The translations under genes were made by a program, and so were the position numbers. The notes under the pieces are model-generated. The model was not told the DNA's origin. It did not search any database and saw only the letters and a program-made list of their open reading frames with translations. Below, one piece after another: positions 3,319 through 46,639 of a DNA stretch of 64,000 bases. The first letter of the stretch is position 1, and each line of letters opens with the position of its first letter. Origin of the DNA: Allosphingosinicella sp. (lineage in GTDB: Bacteria; Pseudomonadota; Alphaproteobacteria; Sphingomonadales; Sphingomonadaceae); the NCBI GenBank assembly GCA_036273615.1, contig DASUHH010000032.1, forward strand, positions 798-64,797, given 5' to 3'.

Positions 3319-3325
3319 CGGCGGT

Positions 3326-4972
3326 CTACATGTTCGGGTAATTGGGGCCTCCTCCGCCTTCGGGGACGACCCAGTTGATATTCTGGGTCGGGTCCTTGAT
3401 GTCGCAGGTCTTGCAGTGGACGCAATTCTGCGCGTTGATCTGGAGCCGGGTGCGGCCGGCCTCCTCGACATATTCATAGACTCCCGCGGGACAATAGCGT
3501 TGCTCCGGTCCCGCATAGAGCGGCAGATTGACCTCGGTCGGTATCGCCGCATCCTTGAGCGTCAGGTGAACCGGCTGGTCCTCCTCATGATTGGTGTTCG
3601 AGACGAACACCGAGGAGAGGCGGTCGAAGCTGATCGTGCCGTCGGGCTTGGGATAAGCGATCGGCTTCGCCAGATCCTTGCGGGTGAGTCCCTCGTTGTC
3701 GGGATGATGCTTCATCGTGAAGGGCAGCCCGATGCCGAGCGTGCGCATCCACATGTCGATCCCGGCGAGCAGGGTGCCGGCGGTGCCGCCGAAACGGGCG
3801 ACGAGCGGCTCGACGTTGCGCACCTTCTTCAATTCGGCGGCGATCCAGCTCGAGCGGACCGACGGCTCATAACCTTCCAGCACATCGCCGCTCCGGTCGG
3901 CCGAGATCGCCTCGAAGGCGGCCTCGGCGGCGAGCATTGCGGACTTCATCGCCGTATGGCTGCCCTTGATCCTGGGCACGTTGACGAAGCCGGCCGCGCA
4001 GCCGATCAAGGCGCCGCCGGGAAAAGCGAGCTTCGGCACCGACTGCCAGCCGCCCTCGTTGATCGCCCGCGCGCCGTAGGAGATTCGGCGGCCGCCCTCC
4101 AGCACCGCCCGGATCGCCGGATGCTGCTTCCAGCGCTGGAATTCCTCGAACGGCGAGAGCCAGGGGTTGCGGTAATCGAGCGCGACGACGAAGCCCAGGG
4201 CCACCTGGTGGTTCGCCTGGTGGTAGAGGAAGCCGCCGCCCCAGGCATCGTCCAATGGCCAGCCCTGGGTGTGGATGACCCGGCCGGGGACGTGCTTCGC
4301 CGGATCGACGTCCCACAATTCCTTGAGGCCGATGCCGTAGACCTGGGGCTGGGCATGCTTGTCGAGCGCGAAGATGCGCTTCAGCTCCTTGGTGAGGCTG
4401 CCGCGCGCGCCCTCGGCGAAGAAGGTGTAGCGGCCGTGCAGCTCCATTCCCGGCTGATATTCGGGCTTGTGGCTGCCGTCGCGCGCGACCCCGAAATCGC
4501 CGGTGGCGACGCCTTTCACCGATCCGTCCTCATTGTAGAGGATCTCCGCCGCCGCGAAGCCGGGGAAGATCTCGACCCCCAGGGCCTCGGCCTGGCCGGC
4601 GAGCCAGCGGCAGAGAGTGCCGAGGCTCAAAGTGTAGGTGCCCTTGTTGCTCATGAGGGGCGGCATCAGGACATGGGGAAATTCCCATTTCTTGCCCTCG
4701 CTCAGCACCCAATGATGATTCTCGGTGACCGGGACGGTGAGCGGGCTGTCCAGCTCGCGCCAATTGGGCAGCAATTCCTCGATCGCGCGCGGATCGACGA
4801 CCGCGCCGGAGAGGATATGGGCGCCGACCTCCGATCCCTTTTCGAGGATGCAGACGCCGAGCTCGCGCCCGGCCTCGGTGGCGAGCTGCTTCAGGCGGAT
4901 GCCTGCGGCGAGCCCGGCCGGGCCGGCGCCGACGATCACGACGTCGTAGGGCATCGACTCGCGTTCGGCCAT
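3326..4972 (-). CDS. electron transfer flavoprotein-ubiquinone oxidoreductase
   Basis: DVVIVGAGPAGL FAD motif, GAHILSGA, and C-terminal 4Fe-4S motifs RYCPAGVYE and NCVHCKTCDIKDP. Confidence 0.97.
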   Translation of the reverse strand: MAERESMPYDVVIVGAGPAGLAAGIRLKQLATEAGRELGVCILEKGSEVGAHILSGAVVDPRAIEELLPNWRELDSPLTVPVTENHHWVLSEGKKWEFPHVLMPPLMSNKGTYTLSLGTLCRWLAGQAEALGVEIFPGFAAAEILYNEDGSVKGVATGDFGVARDGSHKPEYQPGMELHGRYTFFAEGARGSLTKELKRIFALDKHAQPQVYGIGLKELWDVDPAKHVPGRVIHTQGWPLDDAWGGGFLYHQANHQVALGFVVALDYRNPWLSPFEEFQRWKQHPAIRAVLEGGRRISYGARAINEGGWQSVPKLAFPGGALIGCAAGFVNVPRIKGSHTAMKSAMLAAEAAFEAISADRSGDVLEGYEPSVRSSWIAAELKKVRNVEPLVARFGGTAGTLLAGIDMWMRTLGIGLPFTMKHHPDNEGLTRKDLAKPIAYPKPDGTISFDRLSSVFVSNTNHEEDQPVHLTLKDAAIPTEVNLPLYAGPEQRYCPAGVYEYVEEAGRTRLQINAQNCVHCKTCDIKDPTQNINWVVPEGGGGPNYPNM

Positions 4973-5861: not shown

Positions 5862-7618
5862 TCCGAATTCGCTTTTGGCTGCTCGCCGCCGCCCTCGCCG
5901 CGCCCGCTTTCGCCGCAGCGCCTGCCGCAGCGCAGGATGCGGCGGCGCGGACGAGCGCCGTTCCGGCAATCCTCACCGCCGACCAGCGCACCCGATATCG
6001 CGACATCTTCGCCGCGATCCGCGCCGGCGACTGGGCCGGCGCCGCGGCCAAGCTCGACGCCATGCCCGAGGGCCCGCTCCATCCGGCCGCGCGGGAGGAG
6101 CTCTACCTCGCCAAGGGCTCGCCCAAGGTGGCGCTCGATCCGCTCCTCGCACTGCTCGCCAGGGCGCCCGACCTGCCCAAGGCCGACCAGCTCGCCCGCC
6201 TCGCCATCAATCGCGGCGCCGCGAGCCTGCCGCCTCTGCCGCAGGCGCATGCCCTCGTCTTCGCCGGCGGCCAGCCGCGCCGCGGCCGTCCCCAGCCGGT
6301 GCCGCGCGATGCGGCGAGCGGCGACGTCGACCGCCAGATCACGCCTTTGATCAACGACAACAAGCCGGCCGATGCCGAGGCGATCTTCATGGCCCGGATC
6401 AACGAGCTGACGCCCGACGTCCAGACCGAGTTCCAGCAGCGCATCGCCTGGTCCTATTATATCGTCGGCGACGATTCATCGGCCTGGCGGCTCGCCCAGG
6501 TCGCCCGCAACGGCAATGGCGACTGGGCGACCCAGGCCGCCTGGACCGCCGGCCTCGCCGCCTGGCGGACGCGCCGCTGCGACGACGCTTCCGACGCCTT
6601 CGCCACGGTCGCCGCCCGCACCACCGATTACGAGCTTGCCGCCGCCGCTAACTATTGGGGGGCGCGGGCGGACACCGAATGCGGCCGTCCCGAACGCGTC
6701 GAGACCAAGCTCAGGAGCGCCGCCCGCTTCAAGGAGACCTTTTACGGCCTGCTCGCCGCGACCGCGCTCGGCATCCATTCGTCCAATTATGAGGGGCTGC
6801 ACGATTATCGCGACGCCGAATGGCGCCCGGTCGCCGACAGGCCCGACGTCCGCGCAGCGATCGCTTTGACCGAGATCGGCGAGACCGACCTTGCCGACCT
6901 CTTCATCCGATACCAGGCGAAGATCGGCGGGACGGGCGACCATGATGCGCTGATCCACCTCGCCTGCGACCTCAACCTGCCGGCGACGCAGCTCTGGCTC
7001 GCCCACAATGCGCCGGCGGGGACCAGCATCAACGTCGCCGCCCGCTACCCTCGGCCCGACTGGCGGCCGGCGCGCGGCTGGCGGGTCGACCAGTCCCTCG
7101 TCTTCGCCCATGCGCTGCAGGAATCCGCCTTCCACACCGACATCGTCAGCAAGGCCGGCGCGGTCGGCCTGCTCCAGGTGACGCCCGGCACGGCCGGCGA
7201 CATCGCCCGCAAGCGCGGCGAGCCGTTCGAGCGCGCCGAGCTCGACAATCCCGCCTTCAACATGGAGTTCGGGCAGGAGAGGATGGAGGCTTTGCGCGAC
7301 ATGGGCGCGACCGGCGGCCTCCTCCCCAAGGTGATCGCGGCCTACGACGCCGGCCCGCTGCCGGTGCAGGAATGGAATGCCCGCGCCTTCGACAAGGGCG
7401 ATCCCCTGCTCTACATCGAGAGCATCCCTTATTGGGAGACGCGCGGCTACGTCCCGATTGTGCTGCGCAATTACTGGATGTACGAGCAGGAAGCCGGCAA
7501 GACCGACGGCAGCCGCGAGGCTTTGGTCCAGGGGCTGTGGCCGCGCTACCCGGGCCTGCCGGGCGCGCGGGCGGTGCGGATGACCGGCGGCGACGAGCTG
7601 GCGATGGGGCGGGATTGA
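5858..7618 (+). CDS. soluble lytic transglycosylase (SLT domain)
   Basis: Signal peptide, ALQES catalytic Glu, AVGLLQV, AAYDAG and IPYWETRGYV. ATGA overlap with the upstream gene. Confidence 0.93.
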   Translation: MIRIRFWLLAAALAAPAFAAAPAAAQDAAARTSAVPAILTADQRTRYRDIFAAIRAGDWAGAAAKLDAMPEGPLHPAAREELYLAKGSPKVALDPLLALLARAPDLPKADQLARLAINRGAASLPPLPQAHALVFAGGQPRRGRPQPVPRDAASGDVDRQITPLINDNKPADAEAIFMARINELTPDVQTEFQQRIAWSYYIVGDDSSAWRLAQVARNGNGDWATQAAWTAGLAAWRTRRCDDASDAFATVAARTTDYELAAAANYWGARADTECGRPERVETKLRSAARFKETFYGLLAATALGIHSSNYEGLHDYRDAEWRPVADRPDVRAAIALTEIGETDLADLFIRYQAKIGGTGDHDALIHLACDLNLPATQLWLAHNAPAGTSINVAARYPRPDWRPARGWRVDQSLVFAHALQESAFHTDIVSKAGAVGLLQVTPGTAGDIARKRGEPFERAELDNPAFNMEFGQERMEALRDMGATGGLLPKVIAAYDAGPLPVQEWNARAFDKGDPLLYIESIPYWETRGYVPIVLRNYWMYEQEAGKTDGSREALVQGLWPRYPGLPGARAVRMTGGDELAMGRD

Positions 7619-7636: not shown

Positions 7637-8074
7637 TCAGAACGCGATATTCCGGGTGATCATCCAGTGGCCGCCGTAAAGGTGCCAGACGGTCAGGAAG
7701 CGGCCGCCGCGGCGGGTCAGCTTGCCGTCGGCGGCGCGGACGCGGAGCCAGGCCTCGCCCCATTCATAGACGTCGTTCGCGTCGGCGGCGACGCGGCCTC
7801 CACTCTTTATCCCCGCACCGACGATATGCGAGGAGGCGCGCGCGCCGGCGGCATAGAGCGCCTCGACCGCCTTGCGCCCCTTCACGACATTGCCGCCGGG
7901 TCCGATGAAGATCCCGTCCTCGGCATAAGGCGCGGCAAGACGCGCCGCATCGCCCGAACGGATCGCCACCGCCCATTCGGCATTGGCGCGATCGATGTCG
8001 GGCGAAGCGCTGGCCACCACCCTGTCTCCCGCCCCTTCCGGAGCCGCCAACGCGATCAGCAACGCAACGATCAT
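7637..8074 (-). CDS. NTF2-like/DUF4440 family secreted protein
   Basis: Signal peptide, then YAEDGIFI...GRKAV...YEWG...GRFLTVW...WMI, the SnoaL/DUF4440 pattern. Confidence 0.75.
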   Translation of the reverse strand: MIVALLIALAAPEGAGDRVVASASPDIDRANAEWAVAIRSGDAARLAAPYAEDGIFIGPGGNVVKGRKAVEALYAAGARASSHIVGAGIKSGGRVAADANDVYEWGEAWLRVRAADGKLTRRGGRFLTVWHLYGGHWMITRNIAF

Positions 8075-8114
8075 GACCTTTCCCCTTTCGCCCGAGATGC
8101 GGAGGCGGCTCGGC

Positions 8115-8966
8115 TCATGCCCTGATCTCGGCAAGGGCCATGGCGACGTTGAGAGCGACGATGGCCATGAAGGCCAGCAGCGAGAAGCAGACGAGCGCCA
8201 ACGTCCGCGCCGACGTCCCGGCGATGCTCGTGCCGTAGAAGCCGCGCATGTGCATCCACAGATGAATCGGCCAGAGCAGCAGCAGCCCTCCCGAGGCGGG
8301 CCCAACCAGCGGCAGGATCAGGGATCGCAGCACCATCGCGAGGCCGGCGAAGGACAGCGAATGCATGGCGAAGATGAAATGGTCATAGAAGGAGAATGCG
8401 CGCCGCACGAAGAGCAAGGCCAGGCCCAGGGCCAGCAGCGGAAGCATCAGGATCGACAGGCGGTGGGCCCATGTCTCGACGGCGCGCCCGAACGATTCGG
8501 GCTGCCGCATCGCGGCGACCACCTTCGGGCCCAGCCAGCCCCCGACGCGATCGTTGCGTCCGCCCCCTCTTACCGTCAGCGAATAGCCGGTGCCCGACAA
8601 GGTCCCGCCAGTCGCGGCTTCGTGCGTCACGACCCGCCCGACCGGAGCCTGACCGACGATCTCCGGGACGAGGAAGACCAGCAGGACCATCGCGAGGAAC
8701 AGGCGCAGGGGCGGAACCTGGTTCGCGACCGCGCCGGCGATCCAATCCCGGGTCAGCGCGGCGGGGCGGAGGACGAGACCGCGAAGGGTGGACCCGATTC
8801 GCCGGTCGAGATGCGTCAGCGCCTCGACGCATTCCTCCACGAGCATCCGGACCGTCGGATGCCCGCGTCTTCGCCGCTGCCCGCACGAATGGCAATAAGG
8901 GCCAAGGAGCGTGGCGCCGCAATTCCGGCAGGCCGCCGGCTGGGCAGGCGCTCCCGCATCGGTCAT
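8115..8966 (-). CDS. DUF3667 domain membrane protein
   Basis: N-terminal CxNC...YCxxCGQ zinc ribbon, a P.RLFL motif and several TM helices (HFIFAMH). Confidence 0.8.
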   Translation of the reverse strand: MTDAGAPAQPAACRNCGATLLGPYCHSCGQRRRRGHPTVRMLVEECVEALTHLDRRIGSTLRGLVLRPAALTRDWIAGAVANQVPPLRLFLAMVLLVFLVPEIVGQAPVGRVVTHEAATGGTLSGTGYSLTVRGGGRNDRVGGWLGPKVVAAMRQPESFGRAVETWAHRLSILMLPLLALGLALLFVRRAFSFYDHFIFAMHSLSFAGLAMVLRSLILPLVGPASGGLLLLWPIHLWMHMRGFYGTSIAGTSARTLALVCFSLLAFMAIVALNVAMALAEIRA

Positions 8967-33200: not shown

Positions 33201-34850
33201 TTATTTCGCCGGAGCCGGGGCCTCCGCCGCAGCGACGGACACGTCGTCGCCCCCCAGCCGGTAATCCCGATACTGCTCCCTCAGCGCCGTCTTGAGCAAT
33301 TTCCCAGTCGCCGTGTGCGGCAGGCCGTCGACGAACAGGATTTCGTCCGGCAGCCACCATTTGGCGACCTGGCCGGCAAGAAAGGCGCGGATCGCCTCGG
33401 CCGTGACCTCCGCCCCCTCCTTCTTCACCACCAGCAGCAGTGGCCGCTCGTCCCATTTGGGGTGGCGCACGCCAACCGCCGCCGCTTCCGCGACGCCGGG
33501 GCAGCCGATCGCCGCATTTTCGAGTGCGATCGAGCTGATCCATTCGCCGCCCGACTTGATCACGTCCTTGGCGCGGTCGGTGATCTCGAGGATTCCATTG
33601 GGGTGGAGGATGGCGACGTCGCCGGTGTCGAACCAGCTCTCCCCGTCGACCGCCTCGCCGCTCTCGTCCTGGAAATAGCGGCGGACGACCCAGGGCCCGC
33701 GCGCCTGCAGCCGGCCGGCGCTCCGCCCGTCGCGCGGCAGGACGTTCCCCTCGTCGTCGACCGTGCGCAACTCGACGCCGAACGGCACCCGCCCCTGCCG
33801 GCACATATAATCGAGCCTCTGCTCGGCATCGAGCAGGCCCCAGTCGCCGGTCGGGGCGCCGACCGTTCCGAGCGGCGACATCTCGGTCATCCCCCAGGCA
33901 TGGCAGACGCTGACGCCGCGATCGGTGAAATAGGCGATCATCGCCCGCGGCGCCGCCGATCCGCCGATATGGACGGTGTGGAGCGCGCCGAGATCGCCGC
34001 CGGTCGCCTCGACATGGCCCATCAGGGCGAGCCAGACGGTCGGCACGCCGGCGGTGTGGGTCACCCCTTCCTCATGCATCAGGTCGCACATGATCTGCGG
34101 CGCGTAATCGGTTGAATAAACGAGCTTTCCGCCGACCATCGCAGTCGAGAAGGGAAGCCCCCAGCCGCCGGCGTGGAACATCGGCACGACCGGAAGCACG
34201 ACCGAGCGGGCCGACAGGCCGAACACGTCGGGCGAGATCTGCATGATCGCGTGGAGGATGGTCGAACGATGCTCGTAGAGCACGCCCTTGGGATTGCCGG
34301 TGGTGCCGCTCGTATAGCAGAGCATCATCGGCTCGCGCTCGTCGCCCTCGACCCAGGCATAATCGTCGCTTTCGGCGGCGATCAGGGCGTCAAACGAGAG
34401 ATCGCCTGTCCCGAGCGAAGTCGAGGGGTCGAAGCAGATATAATGCTCGATCGAATTCCAGCGCGATTTCAGCCGCTCGACCAGGGGCGCGAAGATACGG
34501 TCGTAGAACAGCACCCGGTCCCCGGCATGGTTGCCGATATAGACGAGCTGGTCGTCGAACAGCCGGGTGTTGAGCGTGTGGAGCACGCCGCCCATGCCGA
34601 TCGCGCCGTACCAGGCGACGAGATGGCGGCCATGGTTCATCGCCAGCGTGCCGATCCGGTCGCCCTTGCGCACCCCCAGCCGCTCCAGCGCCCGCGCCAG
34701 CCGCCGCGCGTCGCGCGCGATCCCGGCCCAGTCGGTGCGCGTCTTGCGGCCGCCTTCCAGCGACACGATCTCCCGCGCCCCATGCTCGCGCTCGGCATGG
34801 TCGAGGATCCGCATCACCCTCAGCGGCCAGTCCTGCATCCCTCCAAGCAT
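33201..34850 (-). CDS. medium/long-chain fatty-acid-CoA ligase (AlkK/DmdB-like)
   Basis: [39 protein letters not shown] and TGK. Confidence 0.95.
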
Positions 34851-34886
34851 CGGCGCCTCCTTCAATGGTGGCGGTATCCTGCGAAC

Positions 34887-37800
34887 CTACGAAACCAATG
34901 CCAGCCGCGGCGGCGCGGCGACCGCGAGGCGGACCGCGATCACCCCCTCGACCCGCTCGATCCGCGCGGCGAGCTCGGCGTCGAGGAGGAAGTCGCGGCC
35001 GAGGACCAGCTCCGCTTCGCCCCCGTCCAGCGCCACGCGCAGGCGCAGCTCGCCGCTGCCGCCGCGGTCGCCGGCCAAGGCGGCGGCGAGGCGGCGGACG
35101 GCTTCCTCGTCCGCCACCTCGACCTCGAGCTGGAGGCGGGTGCGCTTGGACAGGCTCTCGAACGGCTGGAGCGACCTGATCGTGACTCGCGGCGCCTCCT
35201 CGCCGGGCCGGCGGTCGAGCTCGACGTTGAGCAGGGCGCAGCCGCCCGCCTTCGCCGCCTCCTCGACCCGCGCCGCGGCATCGTCGTCGAAGATCGTGGC
35301 GGCGAACTGGCCCGATGCGTCGGAGCAGGTCGCCATCAGATAGCGCCGCCCGCGCGCCGAGGTCCGCCAGCGCGTGTCCTCGATCAGCCCCGCCATCACC
35401 GCGCCGGTGCGCCCGCCCTCGGCCGGCGCGGGGAGCGCGCCCAGATCGGCGAAGCTCTTCGCGCCATGGGCCTCGGCGAGATGGCGGTAGCGGTCGACCG
35501 GATGGGCCGAGAAATAGAAGCCGAACGCCTCCTTCTCCGCCGCCATCGACTGGGCCAGCGTCCAGGCGGCGGCGGTCGGCATCCGGATCGGCGGGACCTG
35601 GGCGTCGCCGGCGCCGCCGAACAGCCCGCCCTGCCCGCTCGCCCGCGCGTCGGCGGCGCTCGCGGCATGGGCGAGGATCGTCTCGGCCGCGGCGAAGACC
35701 GAGGCGCGGTTCGGCGCGAGCGCATCGAAGGCGCCGCTGCCGGCGAGGCTTTCGAGCTGGCGCCGGTTGAGCAGGCGCGGATCGATCCGCTCGGCGAAAT
35801 CGTCCAGCGATCGGAAGCGCCCGTTCGCCCGCCTCTCGTCGACGAGCTGCTCCATCGCCTTCCCGCCGACCCCCTTCAGCGCGCCGAGCGCGTAGCGGAC
35901 GGCGAGCGGCTTCTCCTCCTCCCCGGGCACCTCCTCCACCGCGAACTCCGCCTCGCTGGCGTTGATCGACGGCGGCAGGCAGGCGACCCCCATCCGCCGC
36001 ATGTCGTCGACGAACACCGCAAGCTTGTCGGTCTGGTGCATGTCGAAGCACATCGAGGCGGCGTAGAATTCGACCGGATGGTGCGCCTTCAGCCACAAGG
36101 TCTGATAGGCGACGAGCGCATAGGCGGCGGCGTGGCTCTTGTTGAAGCCGTAGCCGGCGAACTTGTCGATCAAATCGAACAATTCGTTCGCCTTGGGCCG
36201 GGCGATGGAATTGGCGGCGCAGCCGGTGACGAAGCGCTCGCGCTGCGCGTCCATCTCGGCCTGGATCTTCTTGCCCATGGCGCGGCGGAGCAGGTCGGCC
36301 TCGCCGAGGCTGAAGCCGGCGAGCACCTTCGCCGCCTCCATCACCTGCTCCTGATAGACGAAGATCCCGTACGTCTCCCTGAGCACGTCCTCGAGCATCG
36401 GGTGCGGATATTCGATCTCGCGCCCGTTCTTGCGCGCCCCGAACATCGGGATATTGTCCATCGGCCCCGGCCGGTAGAGGGCATTGAGGGCGATGATGTC
36501 CTCGAAGCAGGTCGGCTTCACGGCGGCGAGCGTGCGGCGCATGCCCTCGGATTCGAACTGGAAGATGCCGACCGTGTCGCCGCGCTGGAGCAAAGCGAAG
36601 ACCGCCGGATCGTCCCAAGGCAGGCGGTCGAGATCGACCTGGATGCCGCGCTTGGCAAGCATCCGCACCGCCTTCTGGAGGACCGAAAGGGTCTTGAGGC
36701 CCAGGAAGTCGAACTTGATGAGCCCCGCCGCCTCGACATATTTCATGTCGAACTGGGTGACCGGCATGTCCGAGCGCGGATCGCGGTAGAGCGGAACCAA
36801 CTGGTCGAGCGGACGGTCGCCGATGACGACCCCGGCGGCATGGGTCGAGCTGTGGCGCGGCAGGCCTTCCAGCTTCATGGCGAGGTCGAACAGGCGGCGT
36901 ATGTCGGCGTCGTTCCTATATTCGGCGGCGAGCTCGGAGACTCCGTTCAGCGCCCGTTCCAGCGTCCAGGGGTCGGTCGGATGGTTGGGGATGAGCTTGG
37001 CGAGCCGGTCGACCTGGCCGTAGGGCATCTGGAGGACGCGGCCGGTATCCTTGAGCACCGCGCGCGCCTTCAATTTCCCGAAGGTGATGATCTGGGCGAC
37101 CTTGTCGGCGCCGTAGCGGCGCTGGACATAGCGGATCACCTCGCCGCGCCTTGTCTCGCAGAAATCGATGTCGAAGTCCGGCATCGACACCCGCTCGGGG
37201 TTCAGGAAGCGCTCGAACAGCAGGCCGAGCCGGAGCGGGTCGAGATCGGTGACGGTCAGCGCCCAGGCGACCACCGAACCGGCGCCCGAACCGCGGCCCG
37301 GGCCGACCGGAATGTCATTCTCCTTCGCCCATTTGATGAAGTCGGCGACGATCAGGAAATAAGCGGCAAAGCCCATGCCGACAATGATCTCGATCTCATA
37401 TTCGAGGCGCGCGAAATAATCGGGAAAGCGTTCGCGGAGGGCCGCGTCATCCGAGCCGCGCACTCCCGTTCCCCGGCCCTCTTCCGGCGCGACATATTTC
37501 TCCAGCCGCGCCGCCAGCCCCGCGCGCGCATCGCGGCGGAGCTGCTCGGCTTCCCCTTCCGTGTCGCCGGCGATGCTTGGGAGGATCGGCTTGCGCTTCG
37601 GCGCGCCGAAGGCGCAGCGGCGGGCGACGACCCCGCTATTCTCGATCGCCTCGGGCAGGTCGCCGAACAGAGCGCGCATGTCGGCCGCCGGCTTCATCCA
37701 GGCCTCGGGCGAGGAACGGGCGCGGTCGTCGCGGTCGATCTGGCTCGATTGGGCGATGCACAGCATTGCATCGTGCGCGGCGTGGAAATGGGGCTCGGCG

Positions 37801-38408
37801 AAACACGCCGGATTGGTCGCGACCAGCGGCAGGTCGTGGGCGTAAGCGAGGTCGATCAGGTCCGCCTCGGCCGCCTGCTCGACCGCATCGCCGCGCCGGC
37901 TGAGCTCGACGTAGAGGCGCCCCGGAAACAAGGCGGCGAGGCGCGCCGCCATCTCTTCGGCGGCGCTCGCCTGCTCGGCGGCGAGCAGACGGGCGAGCGC
38001 CCCCTCCCCGCCCCCGGTGAGCGCGATCAGGCCCCCGGTCCGCCCCTCCAGCGCCTCGAGCGTCACATGGGCCGGCTCCTCGACCGGCCGCCCGAGATGC
38101 GCCTCCGACACCAGGGAGCAGAGATTGTCGTATCCCTTGTCGTTCTGGACATACAAAGCGAGCCAGTCGAGCGCCGGCTGCGGCCCCGGCCGGGCGATTG
38201 CGAGGAAGGTGCCGACGATCGGCTGCACCCCCGCCTCGCGGCACGCCTCGGTAAATGCCATGGCCGCGTAGAGCCCGTTGCGGTCGGTCACCGCGGCCGC
38301 GGGAAAATCCAGCCTTTTCGCCTGCTTGGCGATCGCCTTCGGCTCGATCGCCCCCTCCAGCATCGTGTAGCTGGAGAAGATGCGCAGTGGGACGTAAAGC
38401 GCGGCCAT
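34887..38408 (-). CDS. dnaE: DNA polymerase III alpha subunit
   Basis: PHP domain, GPGRGSGAGS, ERVSMPDFDIDF, FAGYGFNKSHAAAY and a C-terminal OB fold. Confidence 0.98.
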   Translation of the reverse strand: MAALYVPLRIFSSYTMLEGAIEPKAIAKQAKRLDFPAAAVTDRNGLYAAMAFTEACREAGVQPIVGTFLAIARPGPQPALDWLALYVQNDKGYDNLCSLVSEAHLGRPVEEPAHVTLEALEGRTGGLIALTGGGEGALARLLAAEQASAAEEMAARLAALFPGRLYVELSRRGDAVEQAAEADLIDLAYAHDLPLVATNPACFAEPHFHAAHDAMLCIAQSSQIDRDDRARSSPEAWMKPAADMRALFGDLPEAIENSGVVARRCAFGAPKRKPILPSIAGDTEGEAEQLRRDARAGLAARLEKYVAPEEGRGTGVRGSDDAALRERFPDYFARLEYEIEIIVGMGFAAYFLIVADFIKWAKENDIPVGPGRGSGAGSVVAWALTVTDLDPLRLGLLFERFLNPERVSMPDFDIDFCETRRGEVIRYVQRRYGADKVAQIITFGKLKARAVLKDTGRVLQMPYGQVDRLAKLIPNHPTDPWTLERALNGVSELAAEYRNDADIRRLFDLAMKLEGLPRHSSTHAAGVVIGDRPLDQLVPLYRDPRSDMPVTQFDMKYVEAAGLIKFDFLGLKTLSVLQKAVRMLAKRGIQVDLDRLPWDDPAVFALLQRGDTVGIFQFESEGMRRTLAAVKPTCFEDIIALNALYRPGPMDNIPMFGARKNGREIEYPHPMLEDVLRETYGIFVYQEQVMEAAKVLAGFSLGEADLLRRAMGKKIQAEMDAQRERFVTGCAANSIARPKANELFDLIDKFAGYGFNKSHAAAYALVAYQTLWLKAHHPVEFYAASMCFDMHQTDKLAVFVDDMRRMGVACLPPSINASEAEFAVEEVPGEEEKPLAVRYALGALKGVGGKAMEQLVDERRANGRFRSLDDFAERIDPRLLNRRQLESLAGSGAFDALAPNRASVFAAAETILAHAASAADARASGQGGLFGGAGDAQVPPIRMPTAAAWTLAQSMAAEKEAFGFYFSAHPVDRYRHLAEAHGAKSFADLGALPAPAEGGRTGAVMAGLIEDTRWRTSARGRRYLMATCSDASGQFAATIFDDDAAARVEEAAKAGGCALLNVELDRRPGEEAPRVTIRSLQPFESLSKRTRLQLEVEVADEEAVRRLAAALAGDRGGSGELRLRVALDGGEAELVLGRDFLLDAELAARIERVEGVIAVRLAVAAPPRLALVS

Positions 38409-38484
38409 CGACTCTCTATGGGGTCTTCGTCCCCGTCAGGAAAGCGCCGTCTCGGGCTTTTCCACACCTAAAAGAGGCCGGCGG

Positions 38485-39018
38485 TCACTGCGATGCGGCC
38501 GGCCGGTAGAGGAAGTCGAACGCCGCCTGCCAGCTCCTGCCGTCGTCGACCGAGGTGTCGCCTTTCTGTCGCACGGCGCCGGCCGCCTCACGCGTATAGG
38601 TCATCCGCACCAGAGCGCTCCTGCCGGGGCCGAGCACGTCCTTCCAGAAGCCGGTGAGGACCATCGCCTGGCCCGCGATTCCGCCCTTGAAGTCGACCCG
38701 GGCACCGGCGGAATCGACCCAGGTCTGCCGCCAGGCGTTCTCCTCCGGCACCCAGGCGCTGAGGCTGCCGCCGCCGGTCCCGCCGAGCGGCATCCAATTC
38801 TCGCGGATCGCGCAGCCGGCATAGAGGCGCTCGATCCGGCTGTGCGCGATCAGCTTGGTGTCGCCGGTCCGGTAGACGTCCCAATTGCCGACCCAGAAAT
38901 CGAAGGCGCGATGATCGGGCGTCGCGCAGGGCGAAGGCGGCGGCGTCGGCGTGATCGCCCGCGCCGGCGCCATGCCGGTCACGACCAAGGCCGCCGCCGC
39001 GAAAGACTGGAATCGCAT
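38485..39018 (-). CDS. secreted beta-rich hypothetical protein (DUF1579-like)
   Basis: Signal peptide, C....HR.FDFW.G.W, GCAI.ENW, W.QTWVD and S.DDG.SW. Confidence 0.75.
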   Translation of the reverse strand: MRFQSFAAAALVVTGMAPARAITPTPPPSPCATPDHRAFDFWVGNWDVYRTGDTKLIAHSRIERLYAGCAIRENWMPLGGTGGGSLSAWVPEENAWRQTWVDSAGARVDFKGGIAGQAMVLTGFWKDVLGPGRSALVRMTYTREAAGAVRQKGDTSVDDGRSWQAAFDFLYRPAASQ

Positions 39019-39086
39019 CGACCGCTCCTCCGTCGCCGCCGGAAATTAGCCAAGGGCGGCGGCGCGGTCCAGAGAAGCCGCAGGCC

Positions 39087-39737
39087 TCAGTGGACAGGCT
39101 TGCCGAACTTCGCCCAAGGCCAGGTGAAGGTGAGCGGCGTCCCTCTTATGTCGGCGATCGCAAGCTGCTCCACCCCCTGCTCTTCATGGGGAACGCGGCC
39201 GTCGGCGCTATTGTCGCGATTGTCGCCGAGCGTGAAGACATGGCCGGGCGCGACCTTTTGCGGGCCGAAATTATCCTCGGACGAGGGCCCGGAATCGAGG
39301 ATGAAATGATCGCCCTCCTCGCCCGGGAAATGCTCGCGGAGGCGGACGGCCGTCGGACCGAAGACGCTCGGGTCGGCAACGGGAACGGTGCCGGCCCGCT
39401 GCTGCGGCACCGCTGTGCCGTTGAGGACGACCCGGCCGTCCACGAGGGCGATCGTGTCGCCAGGCAGGGCGGCGATGCGCTGGATATAGGTCGCATCGCC
39501 GTTGCGGAGGAGGATGATCTGGCCGCGCTTCAGCGGATCGGGCGCGCGCATCCAGGCGACGAAATGGTCGTTCCTGTTCAGGGTCGGCTCCATCGATTCC
39601 GAGGGAACGTAGAAATGGCGCACGGCCGGCAGCGGCGCGCCCGCGGCGAACAGCAAGGCGAGTAGGACGAGCAGCAGCAGCCCGCCGAGCCCCCAGAGAA
39701 CGCCCCTCCGCCGCGATCGCGAACCCGCTGCATTCAT
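39087..39737 (-). CDS. signal peptidase I (S26) homologue with catalytic Lys replaced by Gln
   Basis: One TM helix, PSESMEPTL (catalytic Ser box), YIQRIAALPGD where YIKR is expected, and FTLGDNRDNS.D.R. ATGA overlap with the upstream gene. Confidence 0.9.
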   Translation of the reverse strand: MNAAGSRSRRRGVLWGLGGLLLLVLLALLFAAGAPLPAVRHFYVPSESMEPTLNRNDHFVAWMRAPDPLKRGQIILLRNGDATYIQRIAALPGDTIALVDGRVVLNGTAVPQQRAGTVPVADPSVFGPTAVRLREHFPGEEGDHFILDSGPSSEDNFGPQKVAPGHVFTLGDNRDNSADGRVPHEEQGVEQLAIADIRGTPLTFTWPWAKFGKPVH

Positions 39738-42700
39738 TGGCCCGCATCTCCTTCCTTGCCGGCGCCCCGGTCGGTCTCCTTCCCGGCCGGGACGACGATG
39801 CGGCCGATACTCTTGGCGCCGTTCGAATCGCGGGTCAATTCGACGTCGACGCTCTCCTCGCTCTGGTTCGCCCGTCCGAAATTGCGGAACAGATGCGCGG
39901 TCAGCAGGGTCGGCCCGTTGGGATCGAGCCGGTCGGGCGCATAGACATTGGCCTGCACCCGGTAGGTGCCCGCCGGCGCCCGGTGGAGCAGATATTCCTC
40001 CGGCCCATAGCCCTGGGTCATGTCGTGCGAGAGGCGGCCGCCGATCGCCGTCTTCGGATTGTTGTAGATGGCGCGCTCGCCGTCCGGCTCGTCGACCCAG
40101 AGATCCATGTCGGTTCCGTCGGTCGTCCAGTCTATCACCACCCGCATGTCGACGTCGAGCAGGGCGATGAGCCGCGGGTCCATGTCCGGCCGGCCGCCGA
40201 GCCGGCGGAGCTTCGGCACCAGCGAATTGGCCTCCATCAGCGCGATCAATTCGATCCCCGTCCAGCGGGCGTCGAGCGGCTCGGTCGCGACCTGGTAGAG
40301 CAGGCCGATGGCGCGTTCGAGATCGGCACGGGCATGGGCCGGATCGAGCGCCGCCCGTCGCGCCAGCGCAAGCGCGAGCAGGCGCCTGGGCTGGGGCCGG
40401 TCGGGATCGAGCGCCGCCTGGAGCGCGCGCAGCTCGATCGCCCGGTCGATCGCGCCGTAGCGTTCGAGCCGGTCGGCGACGATTCCGAGCGTCACCTCGT
40501 TGGACGAGGGCAATTCGAGCGCGCCCAGCACCATCTCGACCGCCTCCCGGGTGCGGCCGTGCCTGCGCAGCCACTCCGCGGTGTCGAGATAGAAAGCGGG
40601 GATGGTGCCGTGGCGATGCTCGGCCTCGAGGAAACGGGCGTCGAACTGCTCCGGCGCGCCGTCATACAGCTCCAGATAGGGCCGCTCCGGCTGCCAGGCG
40701 TCGATCGCGATCGCGGCGCCCTGCCCCTCCCCTGCCTCGGCCGCTTTGCTCCCGGCCATGGGGATCTCCTCGGCGGTGACGGAGGTGACGGGGGTGGCGG
40801 ACGCCAGATTGCCGTGCGGCACCCGCGATCCGGTCACCACGATGCTCTGGCCGGCCCGCGACGGCAATTGGTTGAGCGCATCGCCCACCGTCTGCGTGGG
40901 TGCCGGCGGTGGCGGCGGAGGAGGAGGCGGCGGCGGCGGTGCCGCCATCCGGACCTGCGGCGACGGCGGCGGGGCGGGTTCCGTCACGTCGAAATTGCGC
41001 GAGGTGGCGACCCGCTTCGGCCGCGCCGCCGGGCTGAAGCGCGTCCTCCACCAGGCGACCTCTTCGGCCCATTCGCCGGCGACCGCGTCGAGCCGCTGCC
41101 GCTTTTCGTCGGCCAGCGTCGAGTCCGCCGCCTTGCGCATCCGCAAATAGCTATCCCGCGCCTCGGACGGATAGTCGGCCGGCGGCTCGACATGGGCGGC
41201 GAGATAATCGGCCGGCAGCTCGAGGACGAGGAAGGACAGGCTCGGGCTGGCAATGTTGTAGCGCCGGCTCAAGGCGACATAATCGGCGCGCTGCTCGGCC
41301 CGGCCGAGCGTCGCGAGCCGGTCGGCGGCGATCAATGCGCCCTCGCCGTCGAACGGCACCGGATCGCCCTCGGCCGAGCGGGAAAGCTCGGTCGTCTCGC
41401 TCCCGTCGGAAAGCAGGACGATCAGATGGTCGCCCTCGGGCGCGCGGGCGAGGATCCGCCAGCGGCCGTCCGGCGCGTCGAGCGCGACGAAGGGCAAGGG
41501 CCGCCGGTCCTGGTCGAGCAATGCGGTCACGCCGCGGAACGGCGCGGCGAGGGCCGCGGCGATGCTCTCCTCATTGCCCGTATCGAGCGCGAAGGCGCGG
41601 CCGCCATGGGCGGCGGCGAGATGGCGCAGCCAGGCGCGGTCGGCATCGCCCGCCGAGCTCACCGCGTCGAGCCGGCAGGCTGGCGCGAAGACGGTGCCGA
41701 GATCGACCGTCGGTCGCCCGTCCGAGAAGAGCAGGCAGGAATCGGCCGGCCCGTCCCCGGCGATCGGCGCGAAGCTGGTCGCGCCGCGATAGGCGAGGCC
41801 CTTCAGCCAGGCGGCCGCATCGTCGGCGGAGGCGGCGATGTGTCGGGTCGCGCCGCTGCTGTTGAAGGCGACCAGCTCGACCGAGCGCGGGCGCGCCCGC
41901 GCGATCAGGCGGCGCAGCAGGGCGATCTCGGCATCGGTGCGGCTGCCGAGCCGCGAGCGCGACCGGTCCCAATAGATTCGAAGGCGCCTCGGCCTGTCGG
42001 CCGCCGCCGCCGGCGGAAGCGCGCCGCCGAGCTGGAGGTAGAGCTCGCCGGTCGCATGGCGGCTGACGAGCGTGTCGCGCGGCGCCGGCGCGGCGACGAC
42101 CAGGGTCCCCGCCACCGGCCCGGCCGCGCCCTCCGCCCTGCCTTCATAGCCGCCCGCCGCCGGCGTCAGCGCCAGCCTGCTCCCGTCGGGCAGGGTCACC
42201 AGGGGCGCGGCGGCGCTTCCGCTCGCCTCGACCGCGACCGACCAGCCCTCGACCGGCGCCGCGAAGGCGAGCGGCAGCCTGACATTGCCGTTGGCCGGAA
42301 CCGGCTGGACGAAGCGCAGCCGGATCGAGCGCCCGCCGCCGGGGCGGATCGGGAAGACATGGGTGCGAAAGACATTGTCGGCCGACACCGCGGCGAGGCC
42401 GGGATCGACGCCGCGCCGGATCCGCGCCTCGTAGACCGCCTCGGCGCGCGGCCGGTCGACGAGCACGCCGTCGACCATCTGGCCGTTGATGTCGAGCGCA
42501 TAGCCGGTCACCACCGCGCCCGGCGGCAGCGCAAGCGAGAAATCGCCCTCCAAAGTCTCCGAATTCGGGTTGGCGAAGGCGGCGTCGACCGTGGTTTCGG
42601 CGACCGCGCCGCGGATTCGGATTCGGACGTCGAGCCGGCGCAGCCCGAGCTCGCGCTCGTGCGCCGCGTCGTGGACGCCGTTGACGCTGGCGCGAAGGCT

Positions 42701-42793
42701 CGGATTGGCCGCCGGCCCCCTGCCCTGGGCCGAGACGACGGCCGGAATCAGCGCCAGCAACAAGCCCAGCCACAAGGCGCGCGCCATATTCAT
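39734..42793 (-). CDS. secreted VIT-domain protein with vWA-like region, TPRs and DUF2135-type C-terminus
   Basis: Signal peptide; VIT pattern (AETTV...F.N...LEG.F...LP.GA.VTGYAL...RA..VYE); WDRSRSR vWA-like start; YQG.T-like YRGAT; C-terminal W.TD.TD.DLWV.EP.GE..Y...GG.LS.D.TQGYGPEEY. Confidence 0.88.
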   Translation of the reverse strand: MNMARALWLGLLLALIPAVVSAQGRGPAANPSLRASVNGVHDAAHERELGLRRLDVRIRIRGAVAETTVDAAFANPNSETLEGDFSLALPPGAVVTGYALDINGQMVDGVLVDRPRAEAVYEARIRRGVDPGLAAVSADNVFRTHVFPIRPGGGRSIRLRFVQPVPANGNVRLPLAFAAPVEGWSVAVEASGSAAAPLVTLPDGSRLALTPAAGGYEGRAEGAAGPVAGTLVVAAPAPRDTLVSRHATGELYLQLGGALPPAAAADRPRRLRIYWDRSRSRLGSRTDAEIALLRRLIARARPRSVELVAFNSSGATRHIAASADDAAAWLKGLAYRGATSFAPIAGDGPADSCLLFSDGRPTVDLGTVFAPACRLDAVSSAGDADRAWLRHLAAAHGGRAFALDTGNEESIAAALAAPFRGVTALLDQDRRPLPFVALDAPDGRWRILARAPEGDHLIVLLSDGSETTELSRSAEGDPVPFDGEGALIAADRLATLGRAEQRADYVALSRRYNIASPSLSFLVLELPADYLAAHVEPPADYPSEARDSYLRMRKAADSTLADEKRQRLDAVAGEWAEEVAWWRTRFSPAARPKRVATSRNFDVTEPAPPPSPQVRMAAPPPPPPPPPPPPAPTQTVGDALNQLPSRAGQSIVVTGSRVPHGNLASATPVTSVTAEEIPMAGSKAAEAGEGQGAAIAIDAWQPERPYLELYDGAPEQFDARFLEAEHRHGTIPAFYLDTAEWLRRHGRTREAVEMVLGALELPSSNEVTLGIVADRLERYGAIDRAIELRALQAALDPDRPQPRRLLALALARRAALDPAHARADLERAIGLLYQVATEPLDARWTGIELIALMEANSLVPKLRRLGGRPDMDPRLIALLDVDMRVVIDWTTDGTDMDLWVDEPDGERAIYNNPKTAIGGRLSHDMTQGYGPEEYLLHRAPAGTYRVQANVYAPDRLDPNGPTLLTAHLFRNFGRANQSEESVDVELTRDSNGAKSIGRIVVPAGKETDRGAGKEGDAGQ

Positions 42794-42997
42794 CCCCCGG
42801 CCCCCTTTTACCGGGAGCCTGAATTTCGTTGCCCGAACAGGCAAGGCGGCGAACGTGGCGATCGGGCTGGGCAAGCCGGACATGAGAATCTCCCTGACGA
42901 CGGCGGCTCTATCGTCCGCCGGTCACTGGGACGCGGCTCCGGGAAGAATCCTTGGAACGGGACCGAAAATTTTTTGCGGCCTTGAGCAGGCCTTGAT

Positions 42998-43696
42998 TCA
43001 GGCTGCCGCGGCCTGCCCTTCGATATGCCCCTCGTGCAGGCGCAGGATGCGGTCCATCTTGGCGGCGATCCGCTCATTGTGGGTGGCGACGAGGGCGGCC
43101 GAACCTTCGTCGCGGACCAGCTTCAGGAACTCGGCGAAGACGAGGTCGGCGGTCGCCTCGTCGAGATTGCCGGTCGGCTCGTCGGCGAGGACGAGGAGCG
43201 GCCGGTTGGCGAGCGCGCGGGCGACGGCAACGCGCTGCTGCTCGCCGCCCGAAAGCTTGCTCGGCCGGTGAGTGAGCCGGTCGGCGAGGCCGAGCCGGCC
43301 GAGCAGCGCCCGCGCCCGCGCCCGCGCCGCCTCGCCGGCGGCGCCGTGGATGAGCTGGGGGATGACGACATTCTCCTCGGCGGTGAAATCCGGAAGGAGA
43401 TGGTGGAATTGATAGACGAAGCCGAGCGCGTCGCGGCGCAGGCGCGTGCGCTGGTCGGCGTTGAGCGCGGCCGCCTCCCGCCCCTCGATCCGGATCGATC
43501 CCTCGAACCCGCCTTCGAGCAGCCCGATCGCCTGGAGCATGGTCGACTTGCCCGAGCCCGACGGGCCGAGCAAGGCGACGATCTCGCCCCGCCCGACATG
43601 GAGGTCGACCCCGCGCAGCACGTCGATCGTGACGTCCGCCTGCGTGAAGCTCCGCCGCAGCCCCCGGACCTCGAGGACGGGTCCCGCGTCAGTCAT
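42998..43696 (-). CDS. lolD: lipoprotein-releasing ABC transporter ATP-binding protein
   Basis: [31 protein letters not shown] and [10 protein letters not shown], directly after lolE. Confidence 0.92.
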
Positions 43697-43756
43697 GGTT
43701 TGCCGCTTTGCCCCTCCCCCTCGATGGGGGAGGATTTTAGCTCGGCGAGGACCGAC

Positions 43757-45007
43757 TCACTCATAGCGCAGCACCTGCACGGGATCGGTGCTCGACGCCT
43801 TCCACGCCGGATAGAGGGTGGAGAGGAAGCTCGCGACCAAAGTCAGCGAAACCACCGCGAACGTCTCGAACGGCGATGTCTTGGACGGCAATTCGGTGAT
43901 GAATCGGATCGACGGGTCCCACAGATTCTGGCCGGTCAGATGCTGGATCCCGTCGACGATCGACTGGCGGAAATAAAGGACGATCGCCGCGAGCACGAGC
44001 CCGCTCAACGTCCCAAGGATTCCGATCGTCAGCCCCACCGACATGAAGATCCGGAGCATCGCCCGCCGCGAGGCGCCCATCGTCCTGAGGATGGCGATGT
44101 CGCGGGTCTTGGCGCGCACCAGCATGATCAGCGACGACAATATGTTGAAGGCGGCGACGACGATGATCAGCGACAGGATCCAGAACATCACCACCCGTTC
44201 GATCTGCAGCGCCTGGAAGAGCGACGAGTTCATCTGCCGCCAGTCGCGCACCACCGCTTCGCCGGCGACGGCGCGGGAGAGCGGCGCGAGGATCTGCTGT
44301 ACCCGGTCGGGCTCGGCGACCTGGATCTCGACCATGCCGACATCCTCGCCCATCATCAGCAGGTTCTGGGCATCCTCGATCGGCATGATCACGAAGGCCT
44401 TGTCATAATCGTAGACGCCGACCTCGAAGATTGCGGCGACGCGGTAGGAGACGATGCGCGGCAGCGTTCCGAACGGAGTCGCCCGGCCGTCGGGGGCGAT
44501 CAGGCTGATCTGGGCGCCGACGCCGACGCCGAGCTGCTCGGCGAGCCGGGCGCCGAGCGCGACATTGTCCGAATCCGGCTTCAGGTCGGCGAGCGAGCCG
44601 GCGACGACCTTGCCGGCGATCGTCTTGTTGCCGAGGATATCCGGAACCCGCATGCCGCGGAGGAGCACGCCCTCGACCCGCCCTTCCGAGCTCGCCATCA
44701 AGGGCTGCTCGATCAACGGGATTGCGGAGGTGACGCCGGGCGTGCGCTTCGCCTGGGCGAGGATGTCGCGCCAGTCGGCCAGCCGCTCGCCATAAGGCTG
44801 GACGACGGCATGGCCATTGAGGCCGATGATCTTGTCGAACAATTCGGCGCGGAAGCCGTTCATCACGCTCATCACGACGATCAGGGCGAAGACGCCGATG
44901 GTGACGGCGAGCAGGCTGAACGCCGCCACCACGAAGATGAACCCCTCGCCCTTCCCCGGCAGCAGGTAACGCCGCGCGATCATCCGCTCGTAACGGGTGA
45001 GGATCAT
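43757..45007 (-). CDS. lolE: lipoprotein-releasing ABC transporter permease (LolC/E)
   Basis: VMSVMNGFR, GHAVV, AAFNILSSLIMLV..KTRDIAILRTMGA and YPAWKA...DPV..LRYE. Confidence 0.92.
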   Translation of the reverse strand: MILTRYERMIARRYLLPGKGEGFIFVVAAFSLLAVTIGVFALIVVMSVMNGFRAELFDKIIGLNGHAVVQPYGERLADWRDILAQAKRTPGVTSAIPLIEQPLMASSEGRVEGVLLRGMRVPDILGNKTIAGKVVAGSLADLKPDSDNVALGARLAEQLGVGVGAQISLIAPDGRATPFGTLPRIVSYRVAAIFEVGVYDYDKAFVIMPIEDAQNLLMMGEDVGMVEIQVAEPDRVQQILAPLSRAVAGEAVVRDWRQMNSSLFQALQIERVVMFWILSLIIVVAAFNILSSLIMLVRAKTRDIAILRTMGASRRAMLRIFMSVGLTIGILGTLSGLVLAAIVLYFRQSIVDGIQHLTGQNLWDPSIRFITELPSKTSPFETFAVVSLTLVASFLSTLYPAWKASSTDPVQVLRYE

Positions 45008-45191: not shown

Positions 45192-46496
45192 TCATCCCGT
45201 CAGCCTCGCCAGCGCGCTCTCCAGCGACACCTCCTCGCGCTCGCCGGTCGCGCGGCGCTTGAGCTCGACCGTTCCGCGCTCCAGCCCGCGCGGGCCGACG
45301 ACGAGCTGCCAGGGGAGGCCGATCAGGTCCATGGTCGCGAACTTGGCGCCGCCGCGCTCGTCGCGGTCGTCGTAGAGGGTCTCGACCCCGGCCGCCTCGA
45401 GGTCGCGGTAGAGCCGGTCGGCGGCGGCGGCGCAGCCTTCGTCGTCCGCGCGCATGTTGATCAGGCCGACCTGGAAGGGCGCGACGCTCTCGGGCCAGAC
45501 GATGCCGGCCTCGTCATGGCTCGCCTCGATGATCCCGCCGACCAGCCGCGACACGCCGATGCCGTAGCTCCCCATCTGCGGATGGACCTGGCCGCCATCC
45601 TTCGTCTGGATGCTCAGCCCCATCGACGCGCTATACTTGGTGCCGAAGGCGAAGATATGGCCGACCTCGATGCCGCGGCGGGTGCGCAGCCGCGCCTTCG
45701 GCACCGGGCATTCGGCGACCTTGGCATGCTCCTCCTCCTCCATCGCGTAGAGGCCGGTCAGCCGCGCGATGGTCGAGGCGTCGGCGGCGAGCAATTCCTC
45801 GCGGCTGATCTCCTCGATTGCCGCGTCGTAGAAGAGCGCGCTCTCGCCCGTATCGGCGAGGATGTGGAATTCGTGGCTGAGGTCGCCGCCGATCGGCCCG
45901 GTCGGCGCCCGCACCGGCACCGCCTGCAGGCCGAGCCGGGCGAAGGTGCGCAGATAGGCGACGAACATCGCCTCGTAGCTGCGCCGCAGCCCCTCCTCGT
46001 CGAGGTCGAAGCTGTAGGCGTCCTTCATCAGGAACTCGCGCCCGCGCATCACGCCGAAGCGCGGCCGCACCTCGTCGCGGAACTTCCACTGGATATGGTA
46101 GAGCGTGCGCGGCAGGTCGCGATAGGAGCGGGCGGCGTCGCGGAAGATGCCGGTGATCATCTCCTCGTTGGTCGGCCCGAACAGCATCTCGCGCTCGTGC
46201 CGATCGAGGAAGCGGAGCATCTCCGGCCCATAGGCGTCGTAGCGGCCCGACTGGCGCCAGAGGTCGGCCGACTGGATGGTCGGCATGAGAAGCTCGATCG
46301 CGCCCGCCCGGTCCTGCTCCTCGCGGACGATCCGCTCGATATTCCTCAGCACCCGGAGGCCGATCGGAAGCCAGGCATAGATTCCAGCCGCGGTCTGGCG
46401 GACGAGTCCCGCGCGCAGCATCAATTTGTGGCTGACGATCTGGGCGTCGGCCGGCGTCTCCTTCATGACGGGCAGGAAATAGTTGGAAAGGCGCAT
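45192..46496 (-). CDS. proS: prolyl-tRNA synthetase (short alphaproteobacterial form)
   Basis: [51 protein letters not shown] and anticodon-binding domain. Confidence 0.98.
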
Positions 46497-46639
46497 CGGG
46501 CTGCCTGGTTCGGGCTGTCGGAAGCCCTCGCCTCTAGGGGGGCGAGGGAGGCAGCGCAACCGCACGGCGTCCGGGCGCCGGAGGGGCGTGGGGCCCGCCC
46601 CTGTTGCATGTCCGACACAGGGTCACGGCAATCGCTCCC

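Follow-up and report, generated by a model that had tools for sequence, protein, structure and literature searches.

The 64,000-nucleotide stretch of Allosphingosinicella DNA analysed here (the window) carries on its minus strand, at 39087..39737, a gene for a signal-peptidase-I-like protein that we call S26L. This protein is probably a catalytically dead but retained paralogue of type I signal peptidase (SPase), anchored in the inner membrane by one N-terminal helix and bearing a periplasmic domain of the SPase fold; the ability to cut proteins has very probably been lost, and the protein would be retained for a different role. The lysine of the Ser-Lys dyad is replaced by glutamine, and this change is real and inherited. 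S26L would be the local representative of an alphaproteobacterial subfamily, typically encoded directly downstream of lolC/E-lolD, in which the fold appears to be under selection and the dyad does not. Its hydrophobic substrate cleft may bind an extended peptide of an exported protein without cleaving it, in which case S26L would serve envelope biogenesis as a holder, adaptor or regulator, perhaps tied to the Lol lipoprotein-release transporter, with which it may be co-transcribed in several lineages.

The gene is a complete open reading frame (ORF) of 216 amino acids (aa). Its translation scores above the curated thresholds of Pfam Peptidase_S26 PF10502 (E-value 9.7e-25, 87.9 bits, cutoff 22.9) and of NCBIfam TIGR02227 sigpep_I_bact (82.8 bits, cutoff 47), which places the protein in peptidase family S26. 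Model TIGR02228 sigpep_I_arch gave only 21.6 bits (cutoff 51.85). The NCBIfam scan returned signal peptidase I models exclusively, with no TraF-type S26 match, and the gene lies among chromosomal housekeeping genes, unlike the plasmid or conjugation setting of TraF-type peptidases. An Arg-rich N-terminus (RSRRRG) precedes a single predicted transmembrane helix at residues 7-31 (39645..39719, minus strand), and by the positive-inside rule the likely topology is N-in, with the S26 domain in the periplasm.

In SPase I a Ser is the nucleophile, and a Lys provides its amino group as the general base (PMC4049620). E. coli residue numbers follow from the offset of the PDB chains when S26L is aligned to solved SPases with phmmer. 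The nucleophile is present in S26L: Ser48 (codon TCG, 39594..39596, minus strand; equivalent to E. coli S90) lies in an intact box B, PSESMEPTL, at residues 45-53, as the initial annotation of this DNA had read it. Box D, at residues 84-94, reads YIQRIAALPGD. Here Gln86 stands where the general-base Lys would be (E. coli K145); the alignment pairs it with the Lys of Y-V-K-R in 4nv4 and of Y-I-K-R in E. coli LepB. Substitutions of K145 inactivate the E. coli signal peptidase. S26L thus has the nucleophile of an active type I signal peptidase (Enzyme Commission number EC 3.4.21.89) and lacks its base, and no His stands at the base position, as it would in the Ser-His enzymes of endoplasmic reticulum (ER) type or SipW type. 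Translation and alignment bear out the Lys-to-Gln reading of the initial annotation; its codon position, 39481-39483, was one base off, the CAG codon sitting at 39480..39482 on the minus strand.

Other conserved positions have also changed. Compared with 72 canonical LepB-like relatives, chosen for carrying both Ser and Lys, S26L departs from three further positions that are 99-100% conserved: G56N, D73Q (equivalent to E. coli D129, in box C) and S180G (equivalent to E. coli S281, the Ser of 'DSR' in box E; Gly180 is encoded by GGC at 39198..39200, minus strand). Of 178 family members, 171 have Ser at position 180, as do 99% of canonical relatives. Ser177, the equivalent of E. coli S278, is kept, as is the oxyanion-hole Ser46. 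Boxes C and E had been described as well preserved; this holds for Ser177 and fails for D73 and S180.

The initial annotation had allowed that the Gln codon, one base from AAG, might be recent or a sequencing error. We checked it in Logan contigs, which are assembled, from four soil metagenome runs of four separate studies (X1-X4). CAG at 39480-39482 occurs without difference in the contigs of all four, which at the level of assemblies rules out sequencing error and an AAG codon there. Within the S26L gene these contigs differ from the window at two sites only, a T>C at 39131 (T203A) and a synonymous C>T at 39528 (K70); both occur in the X2 and X3 contigs, and 39528 also in X4. These variants, accompanied by an unchanged Gln codon, indicate a closely related population in several soils. 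Nor do all close orthologues have Lys. The protein P0002, from an Allosphingosinicella metagenome-assembled genome (MAG), is 88% identical and has Ser and Gln at the dyad positions together with the same Gly180, and P0003, at 74% identity, also has Gln at the base position. The nearest relative with Lys is P0009, at 71% identity, and its nucleophile is Ala: the DNA 5′ of its called start reads IPSEAMEPTL, so the nucleophile Ser has been lost. The Lys-bearing relatives nearest to S26L, at 71% identity and less, carry Ala or Gly where the nucleophile would be. Gln at the base recurs in the more distant P0019, P0021, P0022-24, P0026 and P0029. An assembly or sequencing error, or a very recent private AAG-to-CAG mutation, has in its favour the single-base distance and is set against the same codon in four studies and Gln in all these relatives; we consider its probability negligible.

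The dyad was surveyed across the family with a profile of 28 full-length S26L relatives (A2), searched against 1.84 billion cluster representatives. The survey set comprises the best 150 representatives of 50%-identity clusters (174 bits or more) and the query (n = 151); among the matches listed, ordinary LepB-like proteins of named Alphaproteobacteria reach A2 scores of at most about 165 bits. Judged from the alignment, orthologues break the dyad in different ways. Both Ser and Lys are kept in only 48 of the 151. The nucleophile column holds Ser in 101, Ala in 30, Gly in nine, Asn in four and Asp in two. The base column is still more varied, with 16 kinds of residue altogether: Lys 90, Ser 10, Met 9, Ala 6, Val 5, Gly 5, Asp 4, Tyr 4, His 3, Phe 3, and two each of Gln, Thr, Asn, Glu, Leu and Arg. 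By comparison, nearly all of about 70 more distant LepB-like matches of 275-300 aa from the first search are Ser/Lys. On a rough neighbour-joining tree of 188 sequences, Fitch parsimony requires 34 or more changes of state, from an intact dyad to a broken one or back.

Loss of the base is accompanied by loss of its partner. In the LepB structure S278 hydrogen-bonds K145; its equivalent is kept as Ser in 104 of 108 family members with Lys, whereas in the 70 that lack Lys it is Ser in only 38 and otherwise mostly Ala (Fisher p = 8e-12, kinship ignored). The motifs around both dyad columns align unambiguously; like the co-loss, this fits a catalytic machinery that has truly been lost and not a faulty alignment. 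Among 178 subfamily members, both dyad residues are present in 55, Ser only in 59, Lys only in 53 and neither in 11. Retention of Ser and of Lys is negatively associated (odds ratio 0.19, p = 6e-06, kinship ignored), intact dyads and double losses both being fewer than independence predicts; this could stem from the structure of the clades or from selection that disfavours intact dyads.

The fold, as predicted, is that of LepB. The AlphaFold model of S26L (predicted local distance difference test, pLDDT, 88.3; predicted template modelling score, pTM, 0.79) shows an N-terminal helix (residues 7-31) and, after it, a domain rich in beta structure. Its top 16 PDB matches are all E. coli LepB chains (E-values 4e-10 to 9e-08, template modelling (TM) score about 0.6-0.65, and about 0.63 for the best), and it also matches Staphylococcus aureus SpsB and Streptococcus pyogenes SipA (4n31). 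About 20 positions are invariant in A2: M49, P51, G72, R87, P92-G93-D94, G101, G107, E135 and P138 in the first 138 residues, and L170-G171-D172-N173-R174-D175, D179, R181 and G188 from residue 170 onward; M49, for example, is Met in 177 of 178 sequences. The cleft-lining positions F42, V44, M49, L53, L76, Y84 and I85 (respectively F84, I86, M91, L95, V132, Y143 and I144 in E. coli) are hydrophobic across the family at the sequence level, and are less conserved there than in canonical LepB. The subfamily has conserved positions of its own, T52, Q112, G139, E140 and H144. Three of them fall in a motif E-x-F-P-G-E-x3-H at residues 135-144 (about 39306..39335, minus strand), in which G139 is present in 90% of members, E140 in 85% and H144 in 93%; canonical relatives have N/G/Y there.

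The S26L gene is intact and under purifying selection. Among five orthologues the Nei-Gojobori ratio of nonsynonymous to synonymous substitution (dN/dS) lies between 0.28 and 0.53, all ten pairs being well below 1. Between the window and the related locus L001 it is 0.435 for S26L, 0.32 and 0.27 for the adjacent VIT and p177 genes described below, 0.19 for lolD, 0.14 for lolCE, 0.12 for dnaE and 0.08 for proS. The folded S26 pseudo-enzyme proposed in the initial annotation thus gains support from three sides: orthologues and the wider subfamily repeatedly lose Ser, Lys or both, structural motifs are kept, and dN/dS is below 1.

The genes around S26L all lie on the minus strand. Upstream of it are proS (45192..46565), a lolC/E-type permease gene (43757..45007; Pfam MacB_PCD and FtsX), a lolD-type ABC ATPase gene (42998..43696; Pfam ABC_tran), the last two also assigned by synteny, and a gene for a secreted protein of 1049 aa with VIT and DUF2135 domains (39734..42883; ORF list and Pfam), whose TGA stop overlaps the S26L ATG as ATGA. 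Downstream are p177 (38485..39018; ORF list), a recurrent S26L neighbour encoding a 177-aa secreted protein with weak resemblance to DUF1579, and dnaE (34887..38408).

Orthologous loci share the block proS-lolCE-lolD-...-S26L-...-dnaE, and lolD is the conserved upstream neighbour of the S26L family. In L001/L002 (P0002) VIT and p177 are both present and the dyad positions read Ser/Gln. L003/L004 (P0014; Ala/Lys) lack VIT and have an opposite-strand FUSC_2 gene between lolD and S26L. In L006/L007 (P0022, 308 aa; Gly/Gln), in L010 (a Sphingomicrobium MAG, 308 aa; Ala/Lys) and in L099 (P0041; Ser/Lys) the S26L start overlaps the lolD stop, by four bases in L006 and L099 and by one in L010. L008/L009 have two S26L copies flanking FUSC_2, with dyads Ala/Lys and Gly/Lys. 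L093 (P0040; Ser/Ala) has a p177 homologue between lolD and S26L, and on a Joint Genome Institute (JGI) contig (P0039; Ser/Phe) S26L begins 10 bp after lolD. In all, S26L adjoins lolCD in nine of 11 informative subfamily contexts. Next to about 79 other S26 loci from named genomes, no close lolD homologue was found among the matches listed. A profile scan of genome contigs met mostly ordinary LepB genes and, among the matches listed, at least one further syntenic orthologue, that of L010.

The conserved neighbour is lolCD; p177 is a recurrent, not a universal one. Beside the window, p177 accompanies S26L in L001/L002, L008 and L093 (58.6% identity over 140 aa in the last). The VIT gene occurs in the window lineage and L001/L002 and is absent from L003, L006, L008, L010, L093 and L099, so it is a lineage-specific insertion and not a conserved partner. 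For the same reason, its confinement to the window lineage and L001/L002, we rejected, as a general account, the idea that the VIT/DUF2135 protein is an obligate client of S26L by analogy with SipA and pilins.

The p177 proteins are of 175-178 aa with a signal peptide ending in Ala-X-Ala, the copies in L008 and L093 lying at 2915..3451 and 6467..6994; they are more conserved than S26L, a p177 identity of 58.6% going with one of about 35% for the S26L proteins. The VIT protein combines a VIT domain at the N-terminus with about 12 prolines in a row and a DUF2135 at the C-terminus; its weak, partial matches to the sortase- and exosortase-target families TIGR03788, TIGR04286 and TIGR04477 are far under the cutoffs. 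A consensus scan of 38300-43800 detected no promoter or terminator on the minus strand, and the lack of a terminator-like site from lolD to dnaE is compatible with one transcription unit, for which it is weak evidence. No RNA run holding the S26L gene was identified. Two long ORFs on the plus strand, 34173..38471 (1432 aa, opposite dnaE) and 39737..42985 (1082 aa, opposite the VIT gene), are probably not genes; long antisense ORFs are common in G+C-rich DNA.

Variants of S26L and other S26 genes with a lost Lys were seen elsewhere. The 308-aa form (L006 8001..8927, L010 7620..8546; P0022-25, P0029) is longer at the N-terminus by about 100 residues, a region that contains several hydrophobic stretches and matches no Pfam family significantly; after it, L006 and L010 encode a protein of 295-314 aa with a weakly LprI-like C-terminus. 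Other relatives (P0044, P0071, P0085, P0116, P0120) carry an N-terminal DUF805 fusion. In other Alphaproteobacteria, tandem S26 pairs occur in L041 (7031..7564 and 8001..8474; Marivivens marinus MK-3) and L057 (7252..7962 and 8001..8603); in each, copy 1 is Ser/Lys and copy 2 lacks Lys, with Ala in L041 and Gly in L057. An S26 copy in L026, from a Mesorhizobium MAG, has Gln at the base (DFIQR).

Non-catalytic proteins of the SPase type, with an S26 fold and a dyad that is not intact, are already on record, and S26L is one by these features; it shares the genomic context of neither of the two described below. SipA (LepA) of S. pyogenes has its dyad replaced by Asp and Gly, is without activity and keeps the peptide cleft; it is essential for pilus polymerisation and is proposed to bind rather than cut (PMC4049620). 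S26L resembles it in the S26 fold, the broken dyad, the membrane anchor and the extracytoplasmic location, and its model matches SipA 4n31 at an E-value of 4.9e-07 (TM 0.52 normalised to the query, 0.76 to the target). SipA, however, is Gram-positive, lacks the second domain, has lost both dyad residues and is encoded in a sortase/pilin island, whereas S26L is alphaproteobacterial, has lost only the Lys of the dyad (besides the changes at G56, D73 and the S281 equivalent), has a LepB-like insertion domain and is encoded beside lolCD; no sortase was found among the S26L neighbour genes checked against Pfam. With an identity of about 19%, the two are analogues, not orthologues.

The S. aureus protein SpsA is without both catalytic residues and without activity, and has been speculated to be the product of a pseudogene (PMC12414704). 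Like S26L it is a paralogue of the housekeeping SPase I that has lost catalytic residues. It lies in tandem with the active spsB, whereas no active S26 gene accompanies S26L within the window, where lolCD is the neighbour that is conserved. In SpsA the substitutions are fixed in one lineage, against the many dyad states found across the S26L family. With LepB of E. coli and canonical LepB of Alphaproteobacteria, S26L shares family and fold, boxes B, D and E, the N-terminal anchor and the hydrophobic positions lining S1/S3; it differs in having Gln for Lys, three other canonical positions changed, 216 aa instead of 275-300 aa, and the subfamily-specific G139-E140...H144. We found no description of an alphaproteobacterial or lolD-linked inactive S26 family in the open-access literature.

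S26L might nevertheless be an active signal or leader peptidase in which Ser48 works with an unconventional base, either another residue or a water positioned by Gln86, on a dedicated substrate such as the VIT protein or p177. This would suit the retention of Ser48, Ser46 and Ser177, the overlap of the S26L start codon with the stop of the gene for the secreted 1049-aa VIT protein, and the subfamily motif P-G-E...H144 with its widely shared His. Positional orthologues, however, have Ala or Gly for the nucleophile yet keep H144 and the rest of the fold, so that the common function of the family cannot depend on Ser48. The range of the base column, which includes Met, Val, Gly and Phe, the alteration of G56, D73 and S180, otherwise invariant in canonical enzymes, and the missing VIT neighbour at most orthologous loci also speak against it, and we judge continued peptidase activity of this kind decidedly improbable. 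Two half-dead paralogues complementing each other in trans, one providing the Ser and the other the Lys, were considered as well and rejected, both copies in L008 being without the Ser.

Activity aside, the gene could be a functionless relic, a duplicated lepB in decay that has not yet been disrupted, as has been speculated for SpsA (PMC12414704). Its dN/dS is the highest of its neighbourhood (0.435 against 0.08-0.32), and constraint on its active-site and cleft positions is looser than in canonical LepB. Decay accords poorly with the persistence of intact ORFs, much alike in length, at this locus in lineages as distant as about 32-35% identity, with a dN/dS well below 1 in every pair, with some 20 invariant positions and a confident model, and with the overlap of the ORF with upstream genes, which suggests translational coupling. 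We regard a relic as unlikely.

Several observations weigh against a dead enzyme retained for binding. Ser48 is intact, so S26L may have residual or unconventional activity. The dN/dS of S26L, highest among its neighbours, implies modest constraint. About one third of the subfamily keeps both dyad residues, including the lolD-adjacent P0041, so part of the family may have kept peptidase activity and its functions may be mixed. Phylogenetic kinship is ignored both in the tree and in the association tests, and the codon check used assembled contigs and not raw reads. Two subfamily members lie elsewhere, P0036 beside a gene for DsbA and P0034 flanked by pyrB and pyrC; the lolD-dnaE interval is a variable spacer that takes unrelated genes (FUSC_2, patatin, VIT), and the suggested link between S26L and Lol is one of gene order only. 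The 64-kb window holds no second S26 gene and hence no catalytically competent LepB of the same genome; the Ser/Lys S26 proteins of 275 aa known from Allosphingosinicella (P0090, P0109) come from other MAGs.

With S26L taken as an inactive, retained paralogue, the hydrophobic cleft positions and the analogy with SipA (PMC4049620) suggest that it may bind signal-like peptides and leave them uncut. As putative clients we propose, with most support, something connected to Lol, such as lipoproteins or other exported proteins on the outer side of the inner membrane, and after these the locally encoded secreted proteins, p177 and, in the window lineage, VIT; a third putative role, as a decoy for natural SPase I inhibitors in soil that bind the cleft, is pure speculation. 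A more specific proposal, which we hold to be a long shot, is that S26L is a dedicated non-catalytic accessory of the alphaproteobacterial lipoprotein-release transporter of the single-permease LolC/E-LolD type: a membrane-anchored former signal peptidase, its cleft now holding N-terminal peptides of exported proteins or lipoproteins on the periplasmic side and so affecting which proteins pass to the Lol pathway and which are kept from it. If that were true, the dyad losses and the deficit of intact dyads (odds ratio 0.19) would represent selection for binding without cleavage.

The single substitution in S26L is of modest interest; the mosaic loss of the dyad at the level of the family is the more interesting result. 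All source names seen for S26L relatives are 'signal peptidase I'. About two thirds of the best 150 representatives cannot use the Ser-Lys mechanism, so a sizeable alphaproteobacterial group probably carries its enzyme annotation in error. At a single locus, an orthologous gene has had its dyad broken independently in many ways, with co-decay of the Ser that partners the Lys and with the fold kept, which makes it a useful natural series on the origin of pseudo-enzymes. The tandem pair of the cultured Marivivens marinus MK-3 is an experimentally accessible case. Inactive SPase homologues with a known role have so far been Gram-positive, as with SipA in pilus assembly; a Gram-negative family recurrently linked to the essential lolCD offers a testable lead to what may be an unrecognised factor of envelope biogenesis.

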